A stretch of DNA of 64,000 nucleotides from Planctomycetota bacterium (GTDB lineage Bacteria; Planctomycetota; UBA1135; UBA2386): assembly GCA_965228735.1 (NCBI GenBank), contig OZ245838.1, forward strand, positions 2,848,001-2,912,000, in the 5' to 3' direction. The position numbers were made by a program, and so were the translations under genes. The notes beneath the pieces were generated by a model. The model did not search any database and was not told the origin of the DNA. It worked only from the letters and a program-made list of their open reading frames with translations. Positions 46,745-54,662 of the stretch are shown in pieces. The first letter of the stretch is position 1. Every line of letters starts with the position of its first letter.

Positions 46745-47836
46745 TCAGGCGACGGCCTGCCACTGCGCGAGCGTGGCGAGGCCGACCTCGACGAGCTCGA
46801 TCGGCACCGTGCCGTCCGCCGCGGCGGCCCGCAAGCCGTCCCGCACGGCAGCGCTGCTCGGTGCCGCGCCGGATATCCGTTCGACGATCGCCGCGACCCG
46901 CACGATCGCTGCCGCCAGGCTGTCGTTCGGTCCGAGATCGGCGAGACTCGAGCCATGCGGCCGGCGCCAGGCCCCTGCGACCACGGCGCTGAGCAGCCAG
47001 AACTCGTCGAGCCCGCGCTCGAGCAACCAGCCCGTGCCCGCGGGTCCGGGCCGATCCGGGTCGATCGCGGCCCCGACATCGTGCAGCAGCGCCGCGCCAC
47101 CGAGGTCGGGCAGGCGTTCGTCGGGCCAACCGGCGACGCGCGCGAACGCGACGGCGAGCACGGCCACGTGCAGACTGCGGTAGAGCAGCACGTCGTCGCG
47201 TTGCAGCAGCATCAGCGGCTCCATTCCGCCGGCGAGACCGAGCATGCGATCGACGACGCCGGCGATCGCGACCTTCGCCTGGTGCGGCGGCATCCAGCTC
47301 GACGAGCCGAGCGCGACGATCAGGTGGTGCTGCAGGAAGATCGATCGCAGACGCGAGTCGGGCGCCTCGTCAGCCACGGCGTGACGTTCGAGCGGCACGG
47401 GCCGATCGACGTCCCGCAGCGAGGTCGTGACCCCAGCAGTGCCGAGCAGGTTGCCGAACGGCGCCATCGGGCCATCCTTGCCACCGCGCGACGCCGCGGC
47501 CTGCGCCCCGGCCCAGCACAGCAGCGCCGGCTCGTCGATCGCTTCATCGAACATGACCTCGCCCACGGAGTGCTCGCGAAACAGCGTCGCGATGCCGTTG
47601 GCTGCGGCGAACACGTCGACGCTCATCGGCAGCATGTGCCCGTTCACGTGCAGCACGCCGCCGACTTCCTGCAGCATGAGGAAGCGCTCCGTGCCGAGCG
47701 CGGCGTGCACCGCGGCGAGCGCGTCCGAGAGGGCGCGCCGAGCGTCGGCGCTCGCAGCCCCGGGGTCGAGGCGCACCGACCCGATCAGCGCCCAGAGCGA
47801 AGTGACGCAGTGCCGGTAGACCTCGTCACCGATCAT
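46745..47836 (-). CDS. Degenerate HD/HD-GYP-like domain protein
   Basis: SLHVAVLAVAFAR..LGGAALLHDVG; the later HH and GYP motifs are not recognisable. Confidence 0.6.
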   Translation of the reverse strand: MIGDEVYRHCVTSLWALIGSVRLDPGAASADARRALSDALAAVHAALGTERFLMLQEVGGVLHVNGHMLPMSVDVFAAANGIATLFREHSVGEVMFDEAIDEPALLCWAGAQAAASRGGKDGPMAPFGNLLGTAGVTTSLRDVDRPVPLERHAVADEAPDSRLRSIFLQHHLIVALGSSSWMPPHQAKVAIAGVVDRMLGLAGGMEPLMLLQRDDVLLYRSLHVAVLAVAFARVAGWPDERLPDLGGAALLHDVGAAIDPDRPGPAGTGWLLERGLDEFWLLSAVVAGAWRRPHGSSLADLGPNDSLAAAIVRVAAIVERISGAAPSSAAVRDGLRAAAADGTVPIELVEVGLATLAQWQAVA

Positions 47837-47844
47837 CGGCGGAC

Positions 47845-48210
47845 TCAGCCGATGTGCTTCTGCACGAGCTCGATCAGTTCGTCGGGCTCGAACGGCTTGC
47901 GGAAGTAGTCCGCAGCGCCGAGGTCGGAGCTCTTCTGATGGCCCTTGTTGTGCTCACGAGCCGTGAAGATGACGACCGGGATCCCGGAGGTCGCGTCTTC
48001 GCGCTTGAGCCGCGACAGCGTCTCCCAGCCGTCGATGCCGGGCATCATGATGTCGAGCAGGACGAGGTCCGGCTTGGCCTCGCGGGCCTTGGCGATGCCG
48101 TCCTCACCGTTCATGGCCGACTCGACACGGAAGCCTGCGGCCTCGAGCACCATCTGGGTCGAGACAATGATCAGCTTCTCGTCTTCGATGATCAGGACTG
48201 TGCGTTCCAT
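47845..48210 (-). CDS. Single-domain response regulator
   Basis: IIEDE, LLDIMMPGIDG, FTA, KPF. Confidence 0.96.
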   Translation of the reverse strand: MERTVLIIEDEKLIIVSTQMVLEAAGFRVESAMNGEDGIAKAREAKPDLVLLDIMMPGIDGWETLSRLKREDATSGIPVVIFTAREHNKGHQKSSDLGAADYFRKPFEPDELIELVQKHIG

Positions 48211-48223
48211 TGCGTGACTCTCT

Positions 48224-49825
48224 CTAGACCAGCGCGTCGCTCTGCTCGCTACTGCCCTCGGTTACCGGCGTGCTATCGGCGTCCCGGGTCGGCAAGGCGA
48301 AGGAGAAATCGGCACCTTGTCCCAATTGGCTCGAGACCTCGATGCAACTGCCGTGTGCTTCGACGATCCCCTTGGCCACGAACAGGCCGAGACCAGCGCC
48401 GCCGTGGTGGCGGGTGAGCGGGTCCTCGACCTGGAAGAACTTCTCGAAGATCCGCCGCTGGTAACGCGGATCCACGCCGATGCCGTTGTCCCGAACCCGG
48501 AACCGCGGCGCCCCTCCCTCGGATGGAGTGATGGAAACTTCGACAGTCCCACCGTCCGGCGTGAACTTCACGGCGTTCTCGACGAGCGCCTGGCACGCGC
48601 GCCTGAGGTCGGCGCGGTCGACGAACACCTCGCGGTCCTCGACGTTGCTCGCGATCTCGAACTGCAGGTCGATCCGGCGATCGCGTGACGACTGCTCGAA
48701 CGGCGACAGCAGCCCGGCGGCGAACTCCGAGACGGGGCACGCGTCGCGATCCTGGCCGTAGTCGGCGGACTCCAGGCTGCCGAGGTTGATGAGCTTGTCG
48801 ATCTGGTGCTCGAGCCGCAGGGACTGCTCGCGGATCGATTCACAGACCTCGCTCTGCGTCGCCGTGAGCTCGCCGAGCGTCCCCTTCGTCATCATCGTCG
48901 AGAACGTCTTGATGCCCGTGAGCGGCGTGCGCAGCTCGTGCGCGACGATCGACAGATACTGGTTCTTGAGCTGGTCCGTCTTGAACTCGGCCGTCACGTC
49001 CTTGAGGACCGACAGGGCACCCGCGGGCCGGCCGCGGTAGTCCGAGACCTGCGACGTGCTGCACTGGATGTAGACCAGGTCCTGCTCGTTGTGATGGACC
49101 TCGACGGTCTGCGTGACGTCCTTCTTCGATTCCTGCTGCAGCCGGTCGTGGTCGCGGGCGAGGGCTTCGACGAGTTCGCTCTGCCCCCCCATGGCGCGCA
49201 GCGGCTTGCCGATCGCCACGAACGACTTCGTCCCCAGCAGGTTCTCGGCGACCGGGTTGAGGAGCGTGACGTTGCCGCCGCGGTCCACGAACACGATCCC
49301 GTCCATGATGTTGGTGATGATGGTCATCAGTCGTGACAGATCGAGAAAGAAGGTGTCCTGACTCTCCTGGAAACGCTGCGCCTGCTCGGCGCAGCGGTGC
49401 CGCAACTTGGTCGCGAGATACTCGTGCCGCCCGAGTTCGTCGCGCTGACGCCGGGCATCTTGGCCGCGCCGCGCCGCCGCCGTGAGGACCGCCGAGATCG
49501 TCTCTGGGTCGTCGGCGGGCGAGACGAGGCCCGCCGCGCCCAGGCGGAGAGCGAGTCGACAGGCGGGCACCGACGGCGCCTCGTGAGTGCCGAGCACGAG
49601 CGGCGTCGCGTATTCGGCCGCGAGACCGGCGAGTTCGCGACCGTCACCGCAGAGGCGCAGATCGGCGAGCAGGATCGCGGGGTCACCGTCGGCGAGCGCG
49701 AGCCGGGCAGCGCTCAGCCCCGCGACGGTGGTCGATTGCCAGCCGGCGTCGCCGACTCGACCTCCGATCGCGTCGGCCAGTCGGCCGTCGGCGTCGGCGA
49801 GCAGGATCCTCTTGGTGATCGCCAT
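48224..49825 (-). CDS. Cytoplasmic REC-like/PAS histidine kinase
   Basis: PAS (DGIVFVD..NPVAE), H-box AHELRTPL, ENAVKF, DNGIG, GAGLGL; no TM helix. Confidence 0.93.
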   Translation of the reverse strand: MAITKRILLADADGRLADAIGGRVGDAGWQSTTVAGLSAARLALADGDPAILLADLRLCGDGRELAGLAAEYATPLVLGTHEAPSVPACRLALRLGAAGLVSPADDPETISAVLTAAARRGQDARRQRDELGRHEYLATKLRHRCAEQAQRFQESQDTFFLDLSRLMTIITNIMDGIVFVDRGGNVTLLNPVAENLLGTKSFVAIGKPLRAMGGQSELVEALARDHDRLQQESKKDVTQTVEVHHNEQDLVYIQCSTSQVSDYRGRPAGALSVLKDVTAEFKTDQLKNQYLSIVAHELRTPLTGIKTFSTMMTKGTLGELTATQSEVCESIREQSLRLEHQIDKLINLGSLESADYGQDRDACPVSEFAAGLLSPFEQSSRDRRIDLQFEIASNVEDREVFVDRADLRRACQALVENAVKFTPDGGTVEVSITPSEGGAPRFRVRDNGIGVDPRYQRRIFEKFFQVEDPLTRHHGGAGLGLFVAKGIVEAHGSCIEVSSQLGQGADFSFALPTRDADSTPVTEGSSEQSDALV

Positions 49826-49919: not shown

Positions 49920-50306
49920 TCAGCCGTTCTTGATCGCCGAGAGCGCGTCGTCTTCCGTGTCGAAGATCGACAGGTGCTTGCTGATGCGCATGATCTCGAA
50001 GATCTTGATGATGAACGGCTTGATGTTGCTCAGGTAGAGCTTCGCGTTCCGGCAGGACGTGACGTTGTTCGCCACGATGATCAGGCCGACACCGCAAGAA
50101 TCGATGATCTTGACGCTGTCGAGGTTCAACACGAAGTGTTCGTAGCCTTCCTCGATCTTGCTGTTGATCGCTTCCTTCAGCGACTCCTTCAGCGAGTCGG
50201 TCACATAGAAGTTCAGGCTACGATCGTTGAAGGAGATGATGACGGTCCGATCGTCCTTCAGCGTGGTGATGGACAGGCCCTGGCTCTTCTTTCCGACGAT
50301 TTCCAT
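49920..50306 (-). CDS. STAS-domain anti-sigma factor antagonist
   Basis: LNLDSVKIIDSCGVG with the phosphorylatable Ser, IFDTEDDAL; SD GAGGG. Confidence 0.92.
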   Translation of the reverse strand: MEIVGKKSQGLSITTLKDDRTVIISFNDRSLNFYVTDSLKESLKEAINSKIEEGYEHFVLNLDSVKIIDSCGVGLIIVANNVTSCRNAKLYLSNIKPFIIKIFEIMRISKHLSIFDTEDDALSAIKNG

Positions 50307-50490
50307 TGTTCCCTCGATGATCATGGGGCGCGATCGGTCGCACCTTCGCTCCGCGGTCATCGACCACCCCGCCGCGCGAGTTGAGCAGGGCCGGGGTATT
50401 TGTCCGGATGCCGGCGGCCCGGATCGCGCGCCCCCGCGGCGGAAGCGCCCATCGCACCGCCCTCCGGCGCGGCTGGCCCCGGGGAACGCC

Positions 50491-51300
50491 CTACGGCGCC
50501 GAATCCTCGGCCTCGCCACCGGCCGGACCACCCTCCGGACCATCAGCCGCGGCACGCCGTTCGCCCGGCGGCTGCGCGGGGCCGGGTGGCGCCTCGACCT
50601 CCTCGCCGTGGTAGCGCGCCCGCACGTTGGCCCGACCGATCTCGGCGAGGACGTCCGGACTCTTCTTCAGCCCGAGCTGGTTCGCCTTGTTCGCCACGCT
50701 CGCAACCGTCCGGCCGAGCTGCTGCGCGATCTCGAGGTTGTCGCGGTCGGGATAGAGCGCGCGCAGGGACCGGATCTCGGCCTCGGTCCACCGCGGCATG
50801 CGCGCCCGCCCGGCACCACCCTGCTTCTGGCGTTCGGTCGCCGCGAAGCGCTTGTCCTTGGCGAGGCACAGCTGCCGCGCCATCTCGGCGATGTCGCCCT
50901 GCGCCCGCTGCAGACAGACCTCGAGATGGGCGTCTGACCGCGAGCCGTAGAACTCCTTGAGGCGCTGGCGCTCGGCGGCACGCCACGGCCCGGTGCGCAG
51001 GTCCTGGCGCAGCTCCCTGGCGCGAGCCTCGACCTGGGCGATGGGCCGCCCGAGCATCGCGCTGAGGAGCCGCATCTCGACCGCCCCCCAGGCGTCCCGC
51101 AGCAGCCCGTCGTCAGCCGCGGCCCACGGTCCGCGCCGCGGAGCCACGCGCATGATCTCCATCGCCTTGCGGTAGACGCTCGCCGACGACCGCCGCAGCA
51201 GGGTGGCCGCATCGTCTACGCCACGCCGCGGCAGCAGGTGCCGGAGCCGTTCGAGCTCCTGCACCGACCAGTTGCCGCGTCGCAGCGATCGCCCGCTCAT
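50491..51300 (-). CDS. Protein with four Myb/SANT-like helix-turn-helix repeats
   Basis: Repeats start RRGNWSVQE, RRGPWAAAD, RTGPWRAAE and RMPRWTEAE, each ending with (L)xR...V/I...A..L; ATGA overlap with ptsI. Confidence 0.8.
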   Translation of the reverse strand: MSGRSLRRGNWSVQELERLRHLLPRRGVDDAATLLRRSSASVYRKAMEIMRVAPRRGPWAAADDGLLRDAWGAVEMRLLSAMLGRPIAQVEARARELRQDLRTGPWRAAERQRLKEFYGSRSDAHLEVCLQRAQGDIAEMARQLCLAKDKRFAATERQKQGGAGRARMPRWTEAEIRSLRALYPDRDNLEIAQQLGRTVASVANKANQLGLKKSPDVLAEIGRANVRARYHGEEVEAPPGPAQPPGERRAAADGPEGGPAGGEAEDSAP

Positions 51301-53063
51301 GCCCCGAGATCCTCCGCTGCCTCGGACAGGAACCGCGCCCACCGCACCTGGATCTCTTCCTCGACGAGCTGCCGCACCGCGCGCGTCGACTGCATCGCCG
51401 CTGCCCGGGCCGCCAGCTCGCGACACTCGGTCTCGCTGAAGCTGCGGAGCATGAGCTTGACGCGCCGCAGGAACACCGGCGCCATGGACAGCTCCCGGAT
51501 CCCGAGTCCGACGAGGATCGGCGTGAACCAGTGATCGCCGGCGATCTCACCGCAGATCGACACCCGCTTGCCGCCCGTCGCCGCGATGTCGGCGATCTGC
51601 TTGAGCGTGCGCAGGATGCCCGGATGGAACGGGTCGTACATCTTCGCGACCCGCTGGTTGTCGCGGTCCACCGCGAGCAGGTACTGCACGAGGTCGTTGG
51701 TCCCGACCGACACGAAGTCGACGAGCGGCAGCACGTCGGGCAGGACCTGCACCATGACGGGCACTTCGACCATCACACCGAGCTCGATGTCGGCGTCGTG
51801 ATCGATGCCGTTCTCCTGCAGGTCCTCGATGAGTTGGTCGAGGACCTCGCGGCAACGCACGACCTCGCTGCGCGCGGTGACCATCGGCAGCAGGATACGC
51901 GCGTGACCGAGCGCGCCGGCGCGCAGGATCGCGCGCATCTGGGTGTAGAGGATGTCCGGCCAATCGAGGCACAGCCGGATCCCGCGCCAGCCGAGGACCG
52001 GGTTGCGCTCCTCGGGCATGCGGAAGTAGCCGAGCGGCTTGTCGCCGCCGACGTCGAGCGTCCGGAACGTCACAGGCTTGCCCCCGGCGCTCTCCATGGC
52101 CTGGCGATACATCGCGACCTGCTCGTCCTCGGTCGGGAACTGCCGGCGCTCCATGAACGCGAACTCGGTCCGGAACAGCCCGACGCCCGCGACCTCGTCG
52201 GTCTCGAGCCCGCTGAGGTCGTGCACGCTCTCGGCGTTGGCCAGCAGGTCGATCTGCGTGCCGTCGAGCGTGACGGACGGCTGCAGCCGGATCTCGGCCA
52301 GGCGCTTCTCGACCGCGCGCTGCTCGTTCTGCAGTCGTTCGTAGTGCTGCAGCTCTTCCTCGCCCGGATCGAGGATGACGATGCCGGCATCGCCGTCGAC
52401 GATGACCTCGGTGCCGGTCGCTGACTCGAGCATGAGGCCCTCGATGCCGACCACGGCCGGGATCCCGAGGGAACGACTGAGGATCGAACCGTGCGAGTAC
52501 TTGCCGCCGTGCGCGGTGATGATGCCCTGCAGGTGGGTGCGGTCGAGGATGCCCGCGTCGCTCGGCAGGAACTCGTCGGCCGCGAAGACGAAGTCTCGGC
52601 CGTCGGCGATGTACTTCCGGCGCTCGCGCGTCATGCACGCGGCCACGAGCTGGCGACCGATGTCACGCAGGTCGGCCGCGCGTTCGCGCATCGCCGGGTT
52701 GTCCATCTTCTCGAAGACCTCCTCGTAGCGCGCGATCACGCGCTGGAAGGCGGCCTCGAGGTTGACGCCGTTCTCGATCTCGGCTTCGACGTCCTGCCGG
52801 AAGGTCGGGTCGTGCACGATCGCGAGCTGCGCATCGAAGATCCCGGCGTCGTGGTTCTCGATCGCGGTCGCGAGTTCTTTGCGGAGCCCGAGGAGCCCCT
52901 CCGTAACGGACGAGATCGCGGCGGTCAGGCGCTGCTTCTCGGCCTCGAACCGCTCGGGACCGACCTTGTACGTCGGGATCTGATCGAGCGTCGAGTGGAA
53001 CTGCACGATCGGCGCGATCGCCACGCCCGGCGCGGCGGCGATTCCTTTGAGCTTCCGGACCAT
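51297..53063 (-). CDS. ptsI: Phosphoenolpyruvate-protein phosphotransferase (PTS Enzyme I), no GAF domain
   Basis: GGKYSHGSILSR (active-site His), GVGLFRTEF, RTLDVGGDK, SVGTNDLVQY, ICGE. Confidence 0.96.
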   Translation of the reverse strand: MVRKLKGIAAAPGVAIAPIVQFHSTLDQIPTYKVGPERFEAEKQRLTAAISSVTEGLLGLRKELATAIENHDAGIFDAQLAIVHDPTFRQDVEAEIENGVNLEAAFQRVIARYEEVFEKMDNPAMRERAADLRDIGRQLVAACMTRERRKYIADGRDFVFAADEFLPSDAGILDRTHLQGIITAHGGKYSHGSILSRSLGIPAVVGIEGLMLESATGTEVIVDGDAGIVILDPGEEELQHYERLQNEQRAVEKRLAEIRLQPSVTLDGTQIDLLANAESVHDLSGLETDEVAGVGLFRTEFAFMERRQFPTEDEQVAMYRQAMESAGGKPVTFRTLDVGGDKPLGYFRMPEERNPVLGWRGIRLCLDWPDILYTQMRAILRAGALGHARILLPMVTARSEVVRCREVLDQLIEDLQENGIDHDADIELGVMVEVPVMVQVLPDVLPLVDFVSVGTNDLVQYLLAVDRDNQRVAKMYDPFHPGILRTLKQIADIAATGGKRVSICGEIAGDHWFTPILVGLGIRELSMAPVFLRRVKLMLRSFSETECRELAARAAAMQSTRAVRQLVEEEIQVRWARFLSEAAEDLGA

Positions 53064-53165
53064 CCGATGGCATGAGGTTTTCGGGGACCGTGCAGCACTT
53101 TGCAACAGACGGCTTCATCCGCGGAACCACGGATGCCGATTCTGGGCTGTGCACCGGAGGCATCG

Positions 53166-54662
53166 ATGAACAGAGCGGACGGAAACAAGGGGCTGCCGGG
53201 TTTCTTGGATGAACAGGACTCGGCGAATTCCCTGTCGGGGAATGACCCGCAGCGGACGGACGACGCGGCGCCGGACGTCGAGGACGACGAAGACGTCGAA
53301 ACGCTCACGGACGACGACGCATTCGGGGAAGCCGAATGCGATGACGGCGACGTGACGGCGAACGGCGACGACGATTGCGGCGATAGCGACGATGACGAGT
53401 TCTACGACCACGCCGAGGGCGACGACGAGAACGCGACGTTCGGCGAAGGCGACTTCGATTCGGACGAGTTCGACGACGAGGACCACGACGACGATGACGA
53501 CGACGACGACGACGTCGCGCCCGAGCCACGTCGGAGTCGCTCCTCGCGAACCCGCACTCGCCGCAGCCGGCGCACGGCGGCGCCTCAGACCAGTGGCGGC
53601 GGACTCGCGACGGGGTTCGGCATCGTTCTGCTGATCGGCGGCATCGGCCTCGGCTTCGCGGCCGCGGCGCAGCAGAACGTCGCGCAGTTCGGCCTCACGC
53701 CGACGACGCTCATCGTGCTCGGTGGCGTAGCGCTCGGCGTCGGCTCGGTCCGGCGCGGCCTCGGCAAGCTGCACCAGGGCATGTTGGACAGCCAGGAGCA
53801 GAGCGCGAGCGAGCTCGAGGCTCAGGTCAGCGAGGTCGTCGAGCAGCTCGAACAGCGCGCGACCCCGGACCTGCCGCAGGAAGGCCTGACCGGCGACGTG
53901 CAGCACGTCCTCCTCGCCCTGCAGAAGCAGGACGAGAAGACGAACAACCTCACGAAGGCGATCAAGATGTACGGCAAGCCGCTCATGGACATTGCCAACC
54001 ACGGGACGGAGCTCGCGGCCGCGCTCGCCCAGCTCAAGACCGAGGTGGAGACGCACGGCGAGAACGCCAAGAAGGCGTGGACGCACATCGACAAGCAGGT
54101 GCGCGCGTCGGGCGGCGAAGCCGCGCTCGAGAAGCTCGGCAAGTTCGAGGTTGCGATCCAGGCGCTGTCGCAGCGCCTCGAGGAGAGCGCGAAGACGCTG
54201 ATCCGCGTCGAGGAAGCGGCCGGCAAGTCCAACGAGCAGCTGCAGCAGCTCTCGCGCGGCGAATCCGTCGAAGCCGCAGCGAAGTCGCTCGCCGACCAGC
54301 TCGACCAGGCGACGAACAACCTGCAGGGCAGCATGAGCGACCTGCGCGACGGCAACCTCGGCGAGCTCGACACGACCGTGCGCGGTATCCAACGCGACGT
54401 CGCGACGGTCGCGACCGCCGTCTCGCAGATCCAGGCCGCGATCAAGAGCGGCGCGACGGCGCGCCCGGCGCCGACGTCCGCACCGGCGGCCGCGGCCAAC
54501 GGCGGAGCGTCCGCGCCGGCGCCGAGCGCTCCCGCCCCGGCCGCGGTCGGCGGCGGCGGCGGCGACGGCGAGGAGTCCGCCGGCTACTCCACGGGCAAGC
54601 GCCGCAGCGGCGGCAAGAACGTGCTCGGCGCGATCGCCAAGCTCAAGCAGATGAAGGGCTGA
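53166..54662 (+). CDS. Hypothetical membrane protein: acidic N-terminus, two TM helices, long coiled coil
   Basis: SD GGAGG, typical codon usage, D/E-rich first ~120 aa, heptad-rich C-terminal half. Confidence 0.85.
   Translation: MNRADGNKGLPGFLDEQDSANSLSGNDPQRTDDAAPDVEDDEDVETLTDDDAFGEAECDDGDVTANGDDDCGDSDDDEFYDHAEGDDENATFGEGDFDSDEFDDEDHDDDDDDDDDVAPEPRRSRSSRTRTRRSRRTAAPQTSGGGLATGFGIVLLIGGIGLGFAAAAQQNVAQFGLTPTTLIVLGGVALGVGSVRRGLGKLHQGMLDSQEQSASELEAQVSEVVEQLEQRATPDLPQEGLTGDVQHVLLALQKQDEKTNNLTKAIKMYGKPLMDIANHGTELAAALAQLKTEVETHGENAKKAWTHIDKQVRASGGEAALEKLGKFEVAIQALSQRLEESAKTLIRVEEAAGKSNEQLQQLSRGESVEAAAKSLADQLDQATNNLQGSMSDLRDGNLGELDTTVRGIQRDVATVATAVSQIQAAIKSGATARPAPTSAPAAAANGGASAPAPSAPAPAAVGGGGGDGEESAGYSTGKRRSGGKNVLGAIAKLKQMKG

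Follow-up and report, generated by a model that had tools for sequence, protein, structure and literature searches.

Which role could a protein built from four Myb-like repeats have in a bacterium, and why should its gene lie directly behind that of Enzyme I (EI) of the PTS? The question is raised by one locus in a 64,000-nt stretch of a Planctomycetota genome (contig OZ245838.1; the whole stretch is called the window below). A preliminary description of this DNA had proposed a multi-HTH DNA-binding regulator, translationally coupled to ptsI and linked to PEP/PTS status. A computational analysis of the protein, its homologues and its genomic setting is reported here.

Repeat architecture and conservation

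All four of the repeats described earlier, each with a Myb-like start and an HTH end, are present in the translation of the gene. Its features are as follows:

50491..51300, minus strand: four-repeat HTH gene (Myb/GcrA-type), 269 aa; core at aa 7-232, variable and low-confidence tail at aa 233-269
51142..51279, minus strand: repeat 1 (aa 8-53), basic (median charge +6), moderately conserved
50998..51135, minus strand: repeat 2 (aa 56-101), lowest conservation (36% mean pair identity), third helix variable
50851..50994, minus strand: repeat 3 (aa 103-150), third helix variable, flanks conserved (YGxRxDxDL, LAKDK)
50662..50799, minus strand: repeat 4 (aa 168-213), highest conservation (58% mean pair identity), predicted reading head
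50605..50658, minus strand: conserved C-terminal helix (aa 215-232, GRxNVxxRY; N225 and R229 invariant)

The repeats are about 46-48 aa long, and five of their six pairings score above shuffled sequences (p 0.001-0.004), the exception being repeats 1 and 2 (p 0.07; 1000 shuffles for each pair). An AlphaFold2 model (pLDDT 89.5, pTM 0.70) was built from an alignment of 52 of the 59 homologues, two duplicates having been omitted along with five rows that were close or long-tailed. It predicts four three-helix units (H13-50, H61-99, H108-143 and H173-209) with extra helices at H150-159 and H215-232, followed by the low-confidence tail; repeat 4 modelled from one sequence gave a poor result (pLDDT 67), which was left unused. 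The three-helix HTH repeat fold claimed in the preliminary description thus agrees with both the predicted model and the structural matches described below.

The core of the protein is strongly basic (median net charge +18, pI 10.8), with a positive median charge in all four repeats (+2 to +6). Conservation is uneven: exposed positions of the third helix score 0.58 in repeat 4, against 0.42, 0.33 and 0.30 in repeats 1, 2 and 3, and seven residues of repeat 4 are invariant (P169, R170, W171, N188, A192, K205 and K213). The concentration of conservation in the third helix of repeat 4 is what would be expected if one helix reads a fixed target, and the alignment points to one main reading head, probably repeat 4, helped by repeat 1. 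Conserved surface motifs are also found beyond the HTH cores (LAKDK and GRxNVxxRY). Charge and conservation together suggest DNA binding and regulation, and the protein may be a sequence-selective core DNA-binding transcription regulator that acts genome-wide and is co-expressed with a regulatory EI, a reading to which an even chance of being correct is assigned.

Kinship of the repeats

Structural comparison places the repeats among small nucleic-acid-binding HTH units. Repeat 1 matches Cef1/CDC5, Reb1, SNAPc and R2R3-MYB (Z 6.4-6.9, rmsd 1.2-2.1, 44-47 positions aligned), and the best structural match of repeat 4 is the DNA-binding domain of GcrA (5yiu; Z 6.4, rmsd 1.5, 47 aligned, 34% identity). 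Myb-family nucleic-acid-binding domains and GcrA-DBD likewise make up most of the top rows of the full structural search (VIA). For units this short and helical, Z values of 6-7 are modest; they reflect a common predicted arrangement, not function. For the whole model, repeats 2 and 3 were barely covered, and there was no match at E 0.001 in a Foldseek search of the PDB and none at Z>=8 in VIA. CDC5/Cef1 chains dominate the Foldseek PDB list (E >= 0.05) and top the VIA list; in BFVD, a phage D5 protein ranks second (E 1.6e-4).

The profile of the family matches c-Myb R1-R3 (E 1.4e-5), Cef1 (E 1.1e-4) and, weakly, Cbp2 (E 0.15). Pfam family PF00249 is matched by 47 of the 52 aligned members at E up to 0.05, and some homologues carry this label in databases; the query itself falls below the gathering score (19.4 vs 24.4 bits). 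Canonical Myb repeats contain three regularly spaced Trp residues. In this family, 49-52 of the 52 rows have the first Trp, and 0-2 have one close to where the second or third would be. SANT domains have an acidic surface and bind histone tails rather than DNA; this identity is at odds with the positive median charge of all four repeats. At E 0.001 the profile matches 12,375 clusters, a total unsorted by taxon that includes unnamed many-repeat proteins, and by these matches the repeat type appears widespread in prokaryotes and phages. With a single one of the three Trp retained and a repeat so frequent among prokaryotes and phages, the protein qualifies neither as a canonical Myb nor as a eukaryote-specific one. 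The eukaryote-typical character ascribed to it earlier is therefore withdrawn, also in view of the score below the Pfam cut-off; of the proposed multi-HTH regulator, the HTH fold and a basic surface like that of DNA binders stand, and the canonical Myb/SANT identity falls.

Phage relatives are found in PHROG_323 ('transcriptional regulator, D5-like'), which the query matches over several repeats (E 6.4e-22), as do all 52 members (best E 1e-39). An Acidovorax phage AP1 protein aligns over three repeats (probability 98.6%), and a tblastn search of phage records returned one record. T5 D5 was rejected as an orthologue (hhalign probability 1.2%, E 0.043, 40 columns). Similar repeats were also seen in other settings: in unnamed many-repeat proteins (P0144, P0196, P0122 and L067), one of them fused to an SF2 helicase; in several consecutive genes of a Lactobacillales MAG; and, within the same phylum, in 80-aa lysine-rich single-repeat proteins of family f89 (L098, L099, L100 and L102), possibly small nucleoid proteins.

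The phage matches bear on an alternative in which the protein is an abundant nucleoid-associated protein, coating DNA with little sequence preference in the manner of T5 D5 or of Cbp1 with Cren7. Such a protein could well be very basic, with four heads, universal and single-copy, as this one is. The match of all 52 members to PHROG_323 and the rank of the phage D5 protein in BFVD accord with it, as does the formation of chromatin-like structures by Cbp1, together with Cren7, described in PMC10883916 (for further comparison, see PMC13405049 and PMC12630848). However, T5 D5 itself is remote by the hhalign comparison, conservation is concentrated on one recognition helix, and the non-consensus motif before ptsI (see below) does not suggest very high expression. 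Nucleoid coating is considered unlikely, though the best placed of the alternatives.

Class-wide occurrence

The gene is close to universal in its class: a match, almost invariably a single one, was obtained in 200 of 201 class genomes, some of which measure only 1.8-2.5 Mb; 39 of 41 relatives also have a match, and a profile search of the source genome found one copy. Among 301 genomes of the phylum, in which 8-9 candidates per genome were scored, full-length matches occur in all 18 of its own order and in none of the other 283, of which 5 (single query) or 9 (profile) contain short weak matches. The named homologues are from Planctomycetota and are listed in databases as hypothetical or under automatic HTH/Myb labels.

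One homologue (P0303) comes from the cultured Engelhardtia mirabilis, which 10.1101/817700 places in Saltatorellota/OM190/UBA1135. From this placement, the class is likely Saltatorellota/OM190, a deep-branching planctomycete group. A literature search returned no description of the four-repeat family; neither 10.1101/817700 nor PMC11032199 contains the word 'Myb' in its main text, and the supplements of these papers might list the family among clade-specific orthogroups. The repeat type is not new, and the distinctive trait of the family is its class-wide fixation.

Gene order and putative promoters

The following features surround the gene in the window:

51297..53063, minus strand: ptsI (EI-A), a catalytically intact Enzyme I whose stop overlaps the ATG of the repeat gene
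53077..53105, minus strand: promoter-like TTGCAA-N17-GAAAAC before ptsI
53113..53140, plus strand: promoter-like CTTCA-N17-GCCGAT of the divergent gene
53166-54662, plus strand: divergent gene, whose product has an extended acidic N-terminal part, a coiled coil and two predicted hydrophobic segments
50359..50385, minus strand: promoter-like CTCAA-N16-GTCGAT before the STAS gene
49920..50306, minus strand: STAS-domain gene (anti-sigma-antagonist-like)
46745..49825, minus strand: PAS-HisKA-HATPase kinase, single-domain response regulator and HD-like protein, which accompany the STAS gene and lie outside the universal pair

The upstream gene encodes an Enzyme I (TIGR01417, 517 bits vs a cut-off of 342); its ATG is taken at 53063, and EI reference sequences begin one codon later. 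As stated in the preliminary description, the ATG of the repeat gene (51300-51298) overlaps the ptsI TGA (51299-51297) as ATGA in the window, with a GGAGG just upstream, inside ptsI.

Across the class, all 81 loci fetched, each from a distinct genome, have ptsI immediately upstream in the same orientation; this count excludes four duplicates, three loci truncated by a contig end (G039, G027 and G012) and G137 (adjacent, with the gene partial). By printed coordinates, EI is adjacent in 60 of 61 genomes, 12 of which overlap the 81; the EI coordinate on the gene's own contig was used where printed, and the one miss (G123) proved adjacent once fetched. In total, ptsI-A is directly upstream in 129 of 129 genomes checked, from at least eight families, though these related genomes are non-independent samples; in two of them a gap of about 1 kb has no evident gene. 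The flanking genes turn over, with a GBBH-like gene, Tex or a tRNA synthetase in other families. The spacing is less constant than the order: overlap occurs in 34 of the 81 loci, a short gap in 8 and a gap of more than 60 nt in 39. Translational coupling thus fits the overlap in the window and is not general.

Three genomes are without the gene. In G066, EI-A and the nearby Tex gene are also missing and the absence is probably an assembly gap. In G026 and G035, members of genus g25 with fragmented assemblies (85% and 93% complete), EI-A is followed 150-200 nt on by the STAS gene, and no trace of the repeat gene was found at the locus or elsewhere in the assemblies. This is a real loss at the locus, by which the explanation of all misses as assembly gaps is rejected; it follows that neither EI nor the cell always needs the repeat gene. 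The conservation of the ptsI linkage proposed earlier accordingly holds in all 129 genomes checked and is qualified by one genus that keeps EI and the downstream genes without it.

Promoter-like patterns accompany several of these genes. A TTGCA-N-GAAAA-type pattern precedes ptsI in 20 of 20 upstream regions of family f1, the motif of the divergent gene recurs in 18 of 20 f1 regions and that of the STAS gene in 36 of 40 loci, all of them picked out by eye in the very sequences that were counted, which are related to one another; shuffle controls therefore flatter them. The CTCAA/CTTCA-N16/17-G[CT]CGAT motif, which we take from its consensus to be sigma-28-like, occurs in related form on both sides of ptsI and suggests one alternative-sigma regulon; the separate STAS motif suggests that the downstream block is transcribed separately. 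A genome-wide motif scan revealed no regulon, with the ptsI-type motif occurring about once per spacing and the CTCAA motif swamped by codon periodicity, and a generic sigma-70 scan found nothing. In family f9, the repeat gene has its own TTG-N-[CG]ATACT motif (18 of 20, likewise read by eye), so its expression can be uncoupled from that of ptsI.

The neighbours are less widely shared. An orthologue of the STAS gene was found in 9 of 61 class genomes; the protein is unusually conserved where present (72-95% identity in f1 and f7, about 68% in f3) and was absent from f9, f10 and f2 in the same 61-genome search. The STAS and kinase genes as one unit with the repeat gene were considered and rejected, given their own promoter-like motif and occurrence in 9 of 61 genomes. 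The product of the divergent gene has no significant Pfam match; its homologues adjoin ptsI in f1, f7 and f3.

Gene order might also be a relic. In this alternative, a DNA-binding passenger without any tie to the PTS landed behind ptsI in the class ancestor and has stayed through promoter use or slow rearrangement. The clean loss in genus g25 with ptsI kept, the promoter-like motif of its own in f9, the gaps of more than 60 nt in 39 of 81 loci and the want of a conserved His in the protein would all suit a passenger. The neighbourhood is also sticky in general: other neighbours persist across families too, and the STAS-kinase block stays with ptsI even where the repeat gene is lost. Against this stand the turnover of neighbours on both sides and the lack of any relocated copy among 129 genomes from eight or more families, including those in which the gene is preceded by a promoter-like motif of its own. 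Chance retention is on balance held to be distinctly improbable.

The phosphotransferase system of the class

The source genome was initially a candidate for having a single EI, which was ruled out by a second paralogue:

L165:4038-5798 (G000:C1 about 3667040-3668800), minus strand: EI-B, second Enzyme I paralogue, also in L107, L108, L109 and L112

In each of the aligned loci, EI-A retains the His together with the complete set of PEP-site motifs, and it has a lineage-specific motif before the active His. EI-B, in the copy of the source genome and the four others read, keeps the phospho-His motif and has lost the catalytic Cys, GTND and GGDK of the PEP-binding domain. Two EI N-terminal matches are present in most of 121 class genomes, and EI-B is a candidate for a pseudo-EI shared across the class, which might take phosphate from HPr or serve as a scaffold. 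Every repeat-gene copy checked follows EI-A; none follows the degenerate EI-B.

HPr-family matches occur in 121 of 121 genomes. Strong HPr matches are missing in all three f8 genomes, which retain both EI-A and the repeat gene. EIIC family PF02378, the sole EIIC family searched, was found in 2 of 61 genomes. The PTS is thus likely mostly without EIIC, in keeping with the regulatory role proposed for Planctomycete EI in PMC2405797. No HPr kinase scored over the cut-off. Other PTS-related frames were observed in passing. One (L142:2115-3455) encodes about 450 aa and carries an HPr-like domain at its C-terminus (PF00381 over cut-off); many f9 and f10 genomes have frames of comparable length with a second, weak HPr match, and the three f8 genomes have HPr matches of this weak kind only. 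An hpf-EIIA-HPr cluster lies elsewhere in the genome (L061:329-1761), with a second EIIA at L063.

Regulators under PTS control (of the PRD or EIIA-domain type) contain a PRD or EIIA domain or a conserved phospho-His. Neither domain is among the Pfam families listed for the query or the 52 members, and no His is conserved in the protein, the best His column reaching 19 of 52 rows, which makes direct phosphotransfer unlikely. A PEP/PTS-status link is suggested by gene order; this much of the PTS-linked regulator proposed earlier survives, and phosphotransfer to the protein is disfavoured.

The PTS could still act on the protein directly, through phosphorylation-dependent binding to EI-A (or HPr/EIIA) and release to DNA according to the PEP/pyruvate ratio. 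The one-way dependence of the repeat gene on EI-A, never EI-B, would fit such an output, as would the lineage-specific motif of EI-A, the conserved surface motifs LAKDK and GRxNVxxRY, and the retention of EI-A with the repeat gene in the three f8 genomes. However, no His is conserved in the repeat protein, genus g25 retains EI-A in its absence, and no fused form was found at E 1e-10 among longer proteins, a weak search because multi-repeat proteins of such length turned up in the cluster search. A complex prediction for EI-A with the repeat protein (score 0.01, mark 0.32) has no bearing either way. Direct output is rated as improbable, slightly below chance retention.

Proposed mechanism and implications

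The reading that is preferred here remains a sequence-selective DNA-binding regulator co-expressed with EI-A. On this model, the major groove would be read by repeat 4 through the RMPRW arm, the conserved third helix and the C-terminal helix. Repeat 1 would supply a further DNA contact, and repeats 2 and 3 would space the units and grip the backbone; one molecule might then span a long site in the way of Cbp1/Cbp2 and Myb proteins. Shared transcription with ptsI, which is strict in roughly half of the loci, would keep the regulator aligned with the phosphorelay. Any PEP/pyruvate signal would arrive indirectly, for example by contact with HPr or EIIA, and not by phosphorylation of a His of the protein. 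RNA binding, as in the spliceosomal Myb repeats of CDC5/Cef1, is very improbable: these proteins dominate the Foldseek PDB list and top that of VIA, and a gene for the S1-domain protein Tex is a near neighbour in f10, but the Foldseek matches are not significant (E >= 0.05) and the prokaryotic relatives with tested function (GcrA and Cbp1/2) bind DNA, according to PMC5887438 and PMC3597662.

The gene provides an understudied planctomycete lineage with a signature that is nearly universal and with a candidate for a core regulator, which the cultured carrier E. mirabilis makes testable and which could reveal an output of transporter-less PTS systems. More broadly, multi-repeat Myb-like HTH proteins are commonplace among prokaryotes and phages, as a module capable of fixation, and this bears on the origin of the eukaryotic Myb repeats. 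In the most far-reaching scenario, a phage-type repeat protein was domesticated at the Saltatorellota/OM190 root as a master regulator, switched directly by the regulatory EI relay and coupling PEP status to global transcription (perhaps also to the shape-shifting and division modes of the clade), unlike PRD/EIIA-Ntr control; this is a long shot.

Comparison with known systems

By analogy, the protein would work like GcrA-DBD, Cbp or Myb repeats, and it differs from each of these in composition. With eukaryotic Myb proteins (c-Myb, CDC5/Cef1, SNAPC4 and Reb1) it shares tandem three-helix repeats and a [GP]xW[ST]xxE start; unlike them, it has repeats of about 47 aa with the first Trp only, and no activation domain. 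GcrA of Caulobacter (PF07750), a global bacterial regulator, consists of one HTH plus a sigma70-interacting domain, according to PMC5887438. Its N-terminal three-helix DBD matches repeat 4, with a W-T start and a K..LGL end in common. In contrast, there are four HTHs here, the GcrA matches span the HTH only and the sigma-binding domain is absent; the methyl-pocket residues R33/N34 are not kept at the aligned positions, in an alignment that is short (E 0.5). The query has no NCBIfam match to the GcrA family NF050816, and the E. mirabilis homologue reaches 15.6 vs 280 bits, over profile positions 3-40 only.

Archaeal CRISPR-repeat-binding Cbp1 and Cbp2 are small proteins with only two to three Myb-like HTH repeats and basic linkers that occupy a long DNA site, about 25 bp being covered by the linked HTH domains of Cbp2, as PMC3597662 describes. 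Cbp2 (PDB 2LVS) is the best, if weak, sequence match of repeat 4 among natural proteins in the PDB (E 0.016-0.018); the present family differs in having four repeats, in being bacterial and in its tie to ptsI, and the loci read gave no sign of a connection to CRISPR. T5 D5, a DNA-binding protein of 255 aa, is annotated as a requirement for replication and late transcription. Whereas D5 and the PHROG_323 proteins belong to phages, the four-repeat gene is a fixed part of the chromosomal core.
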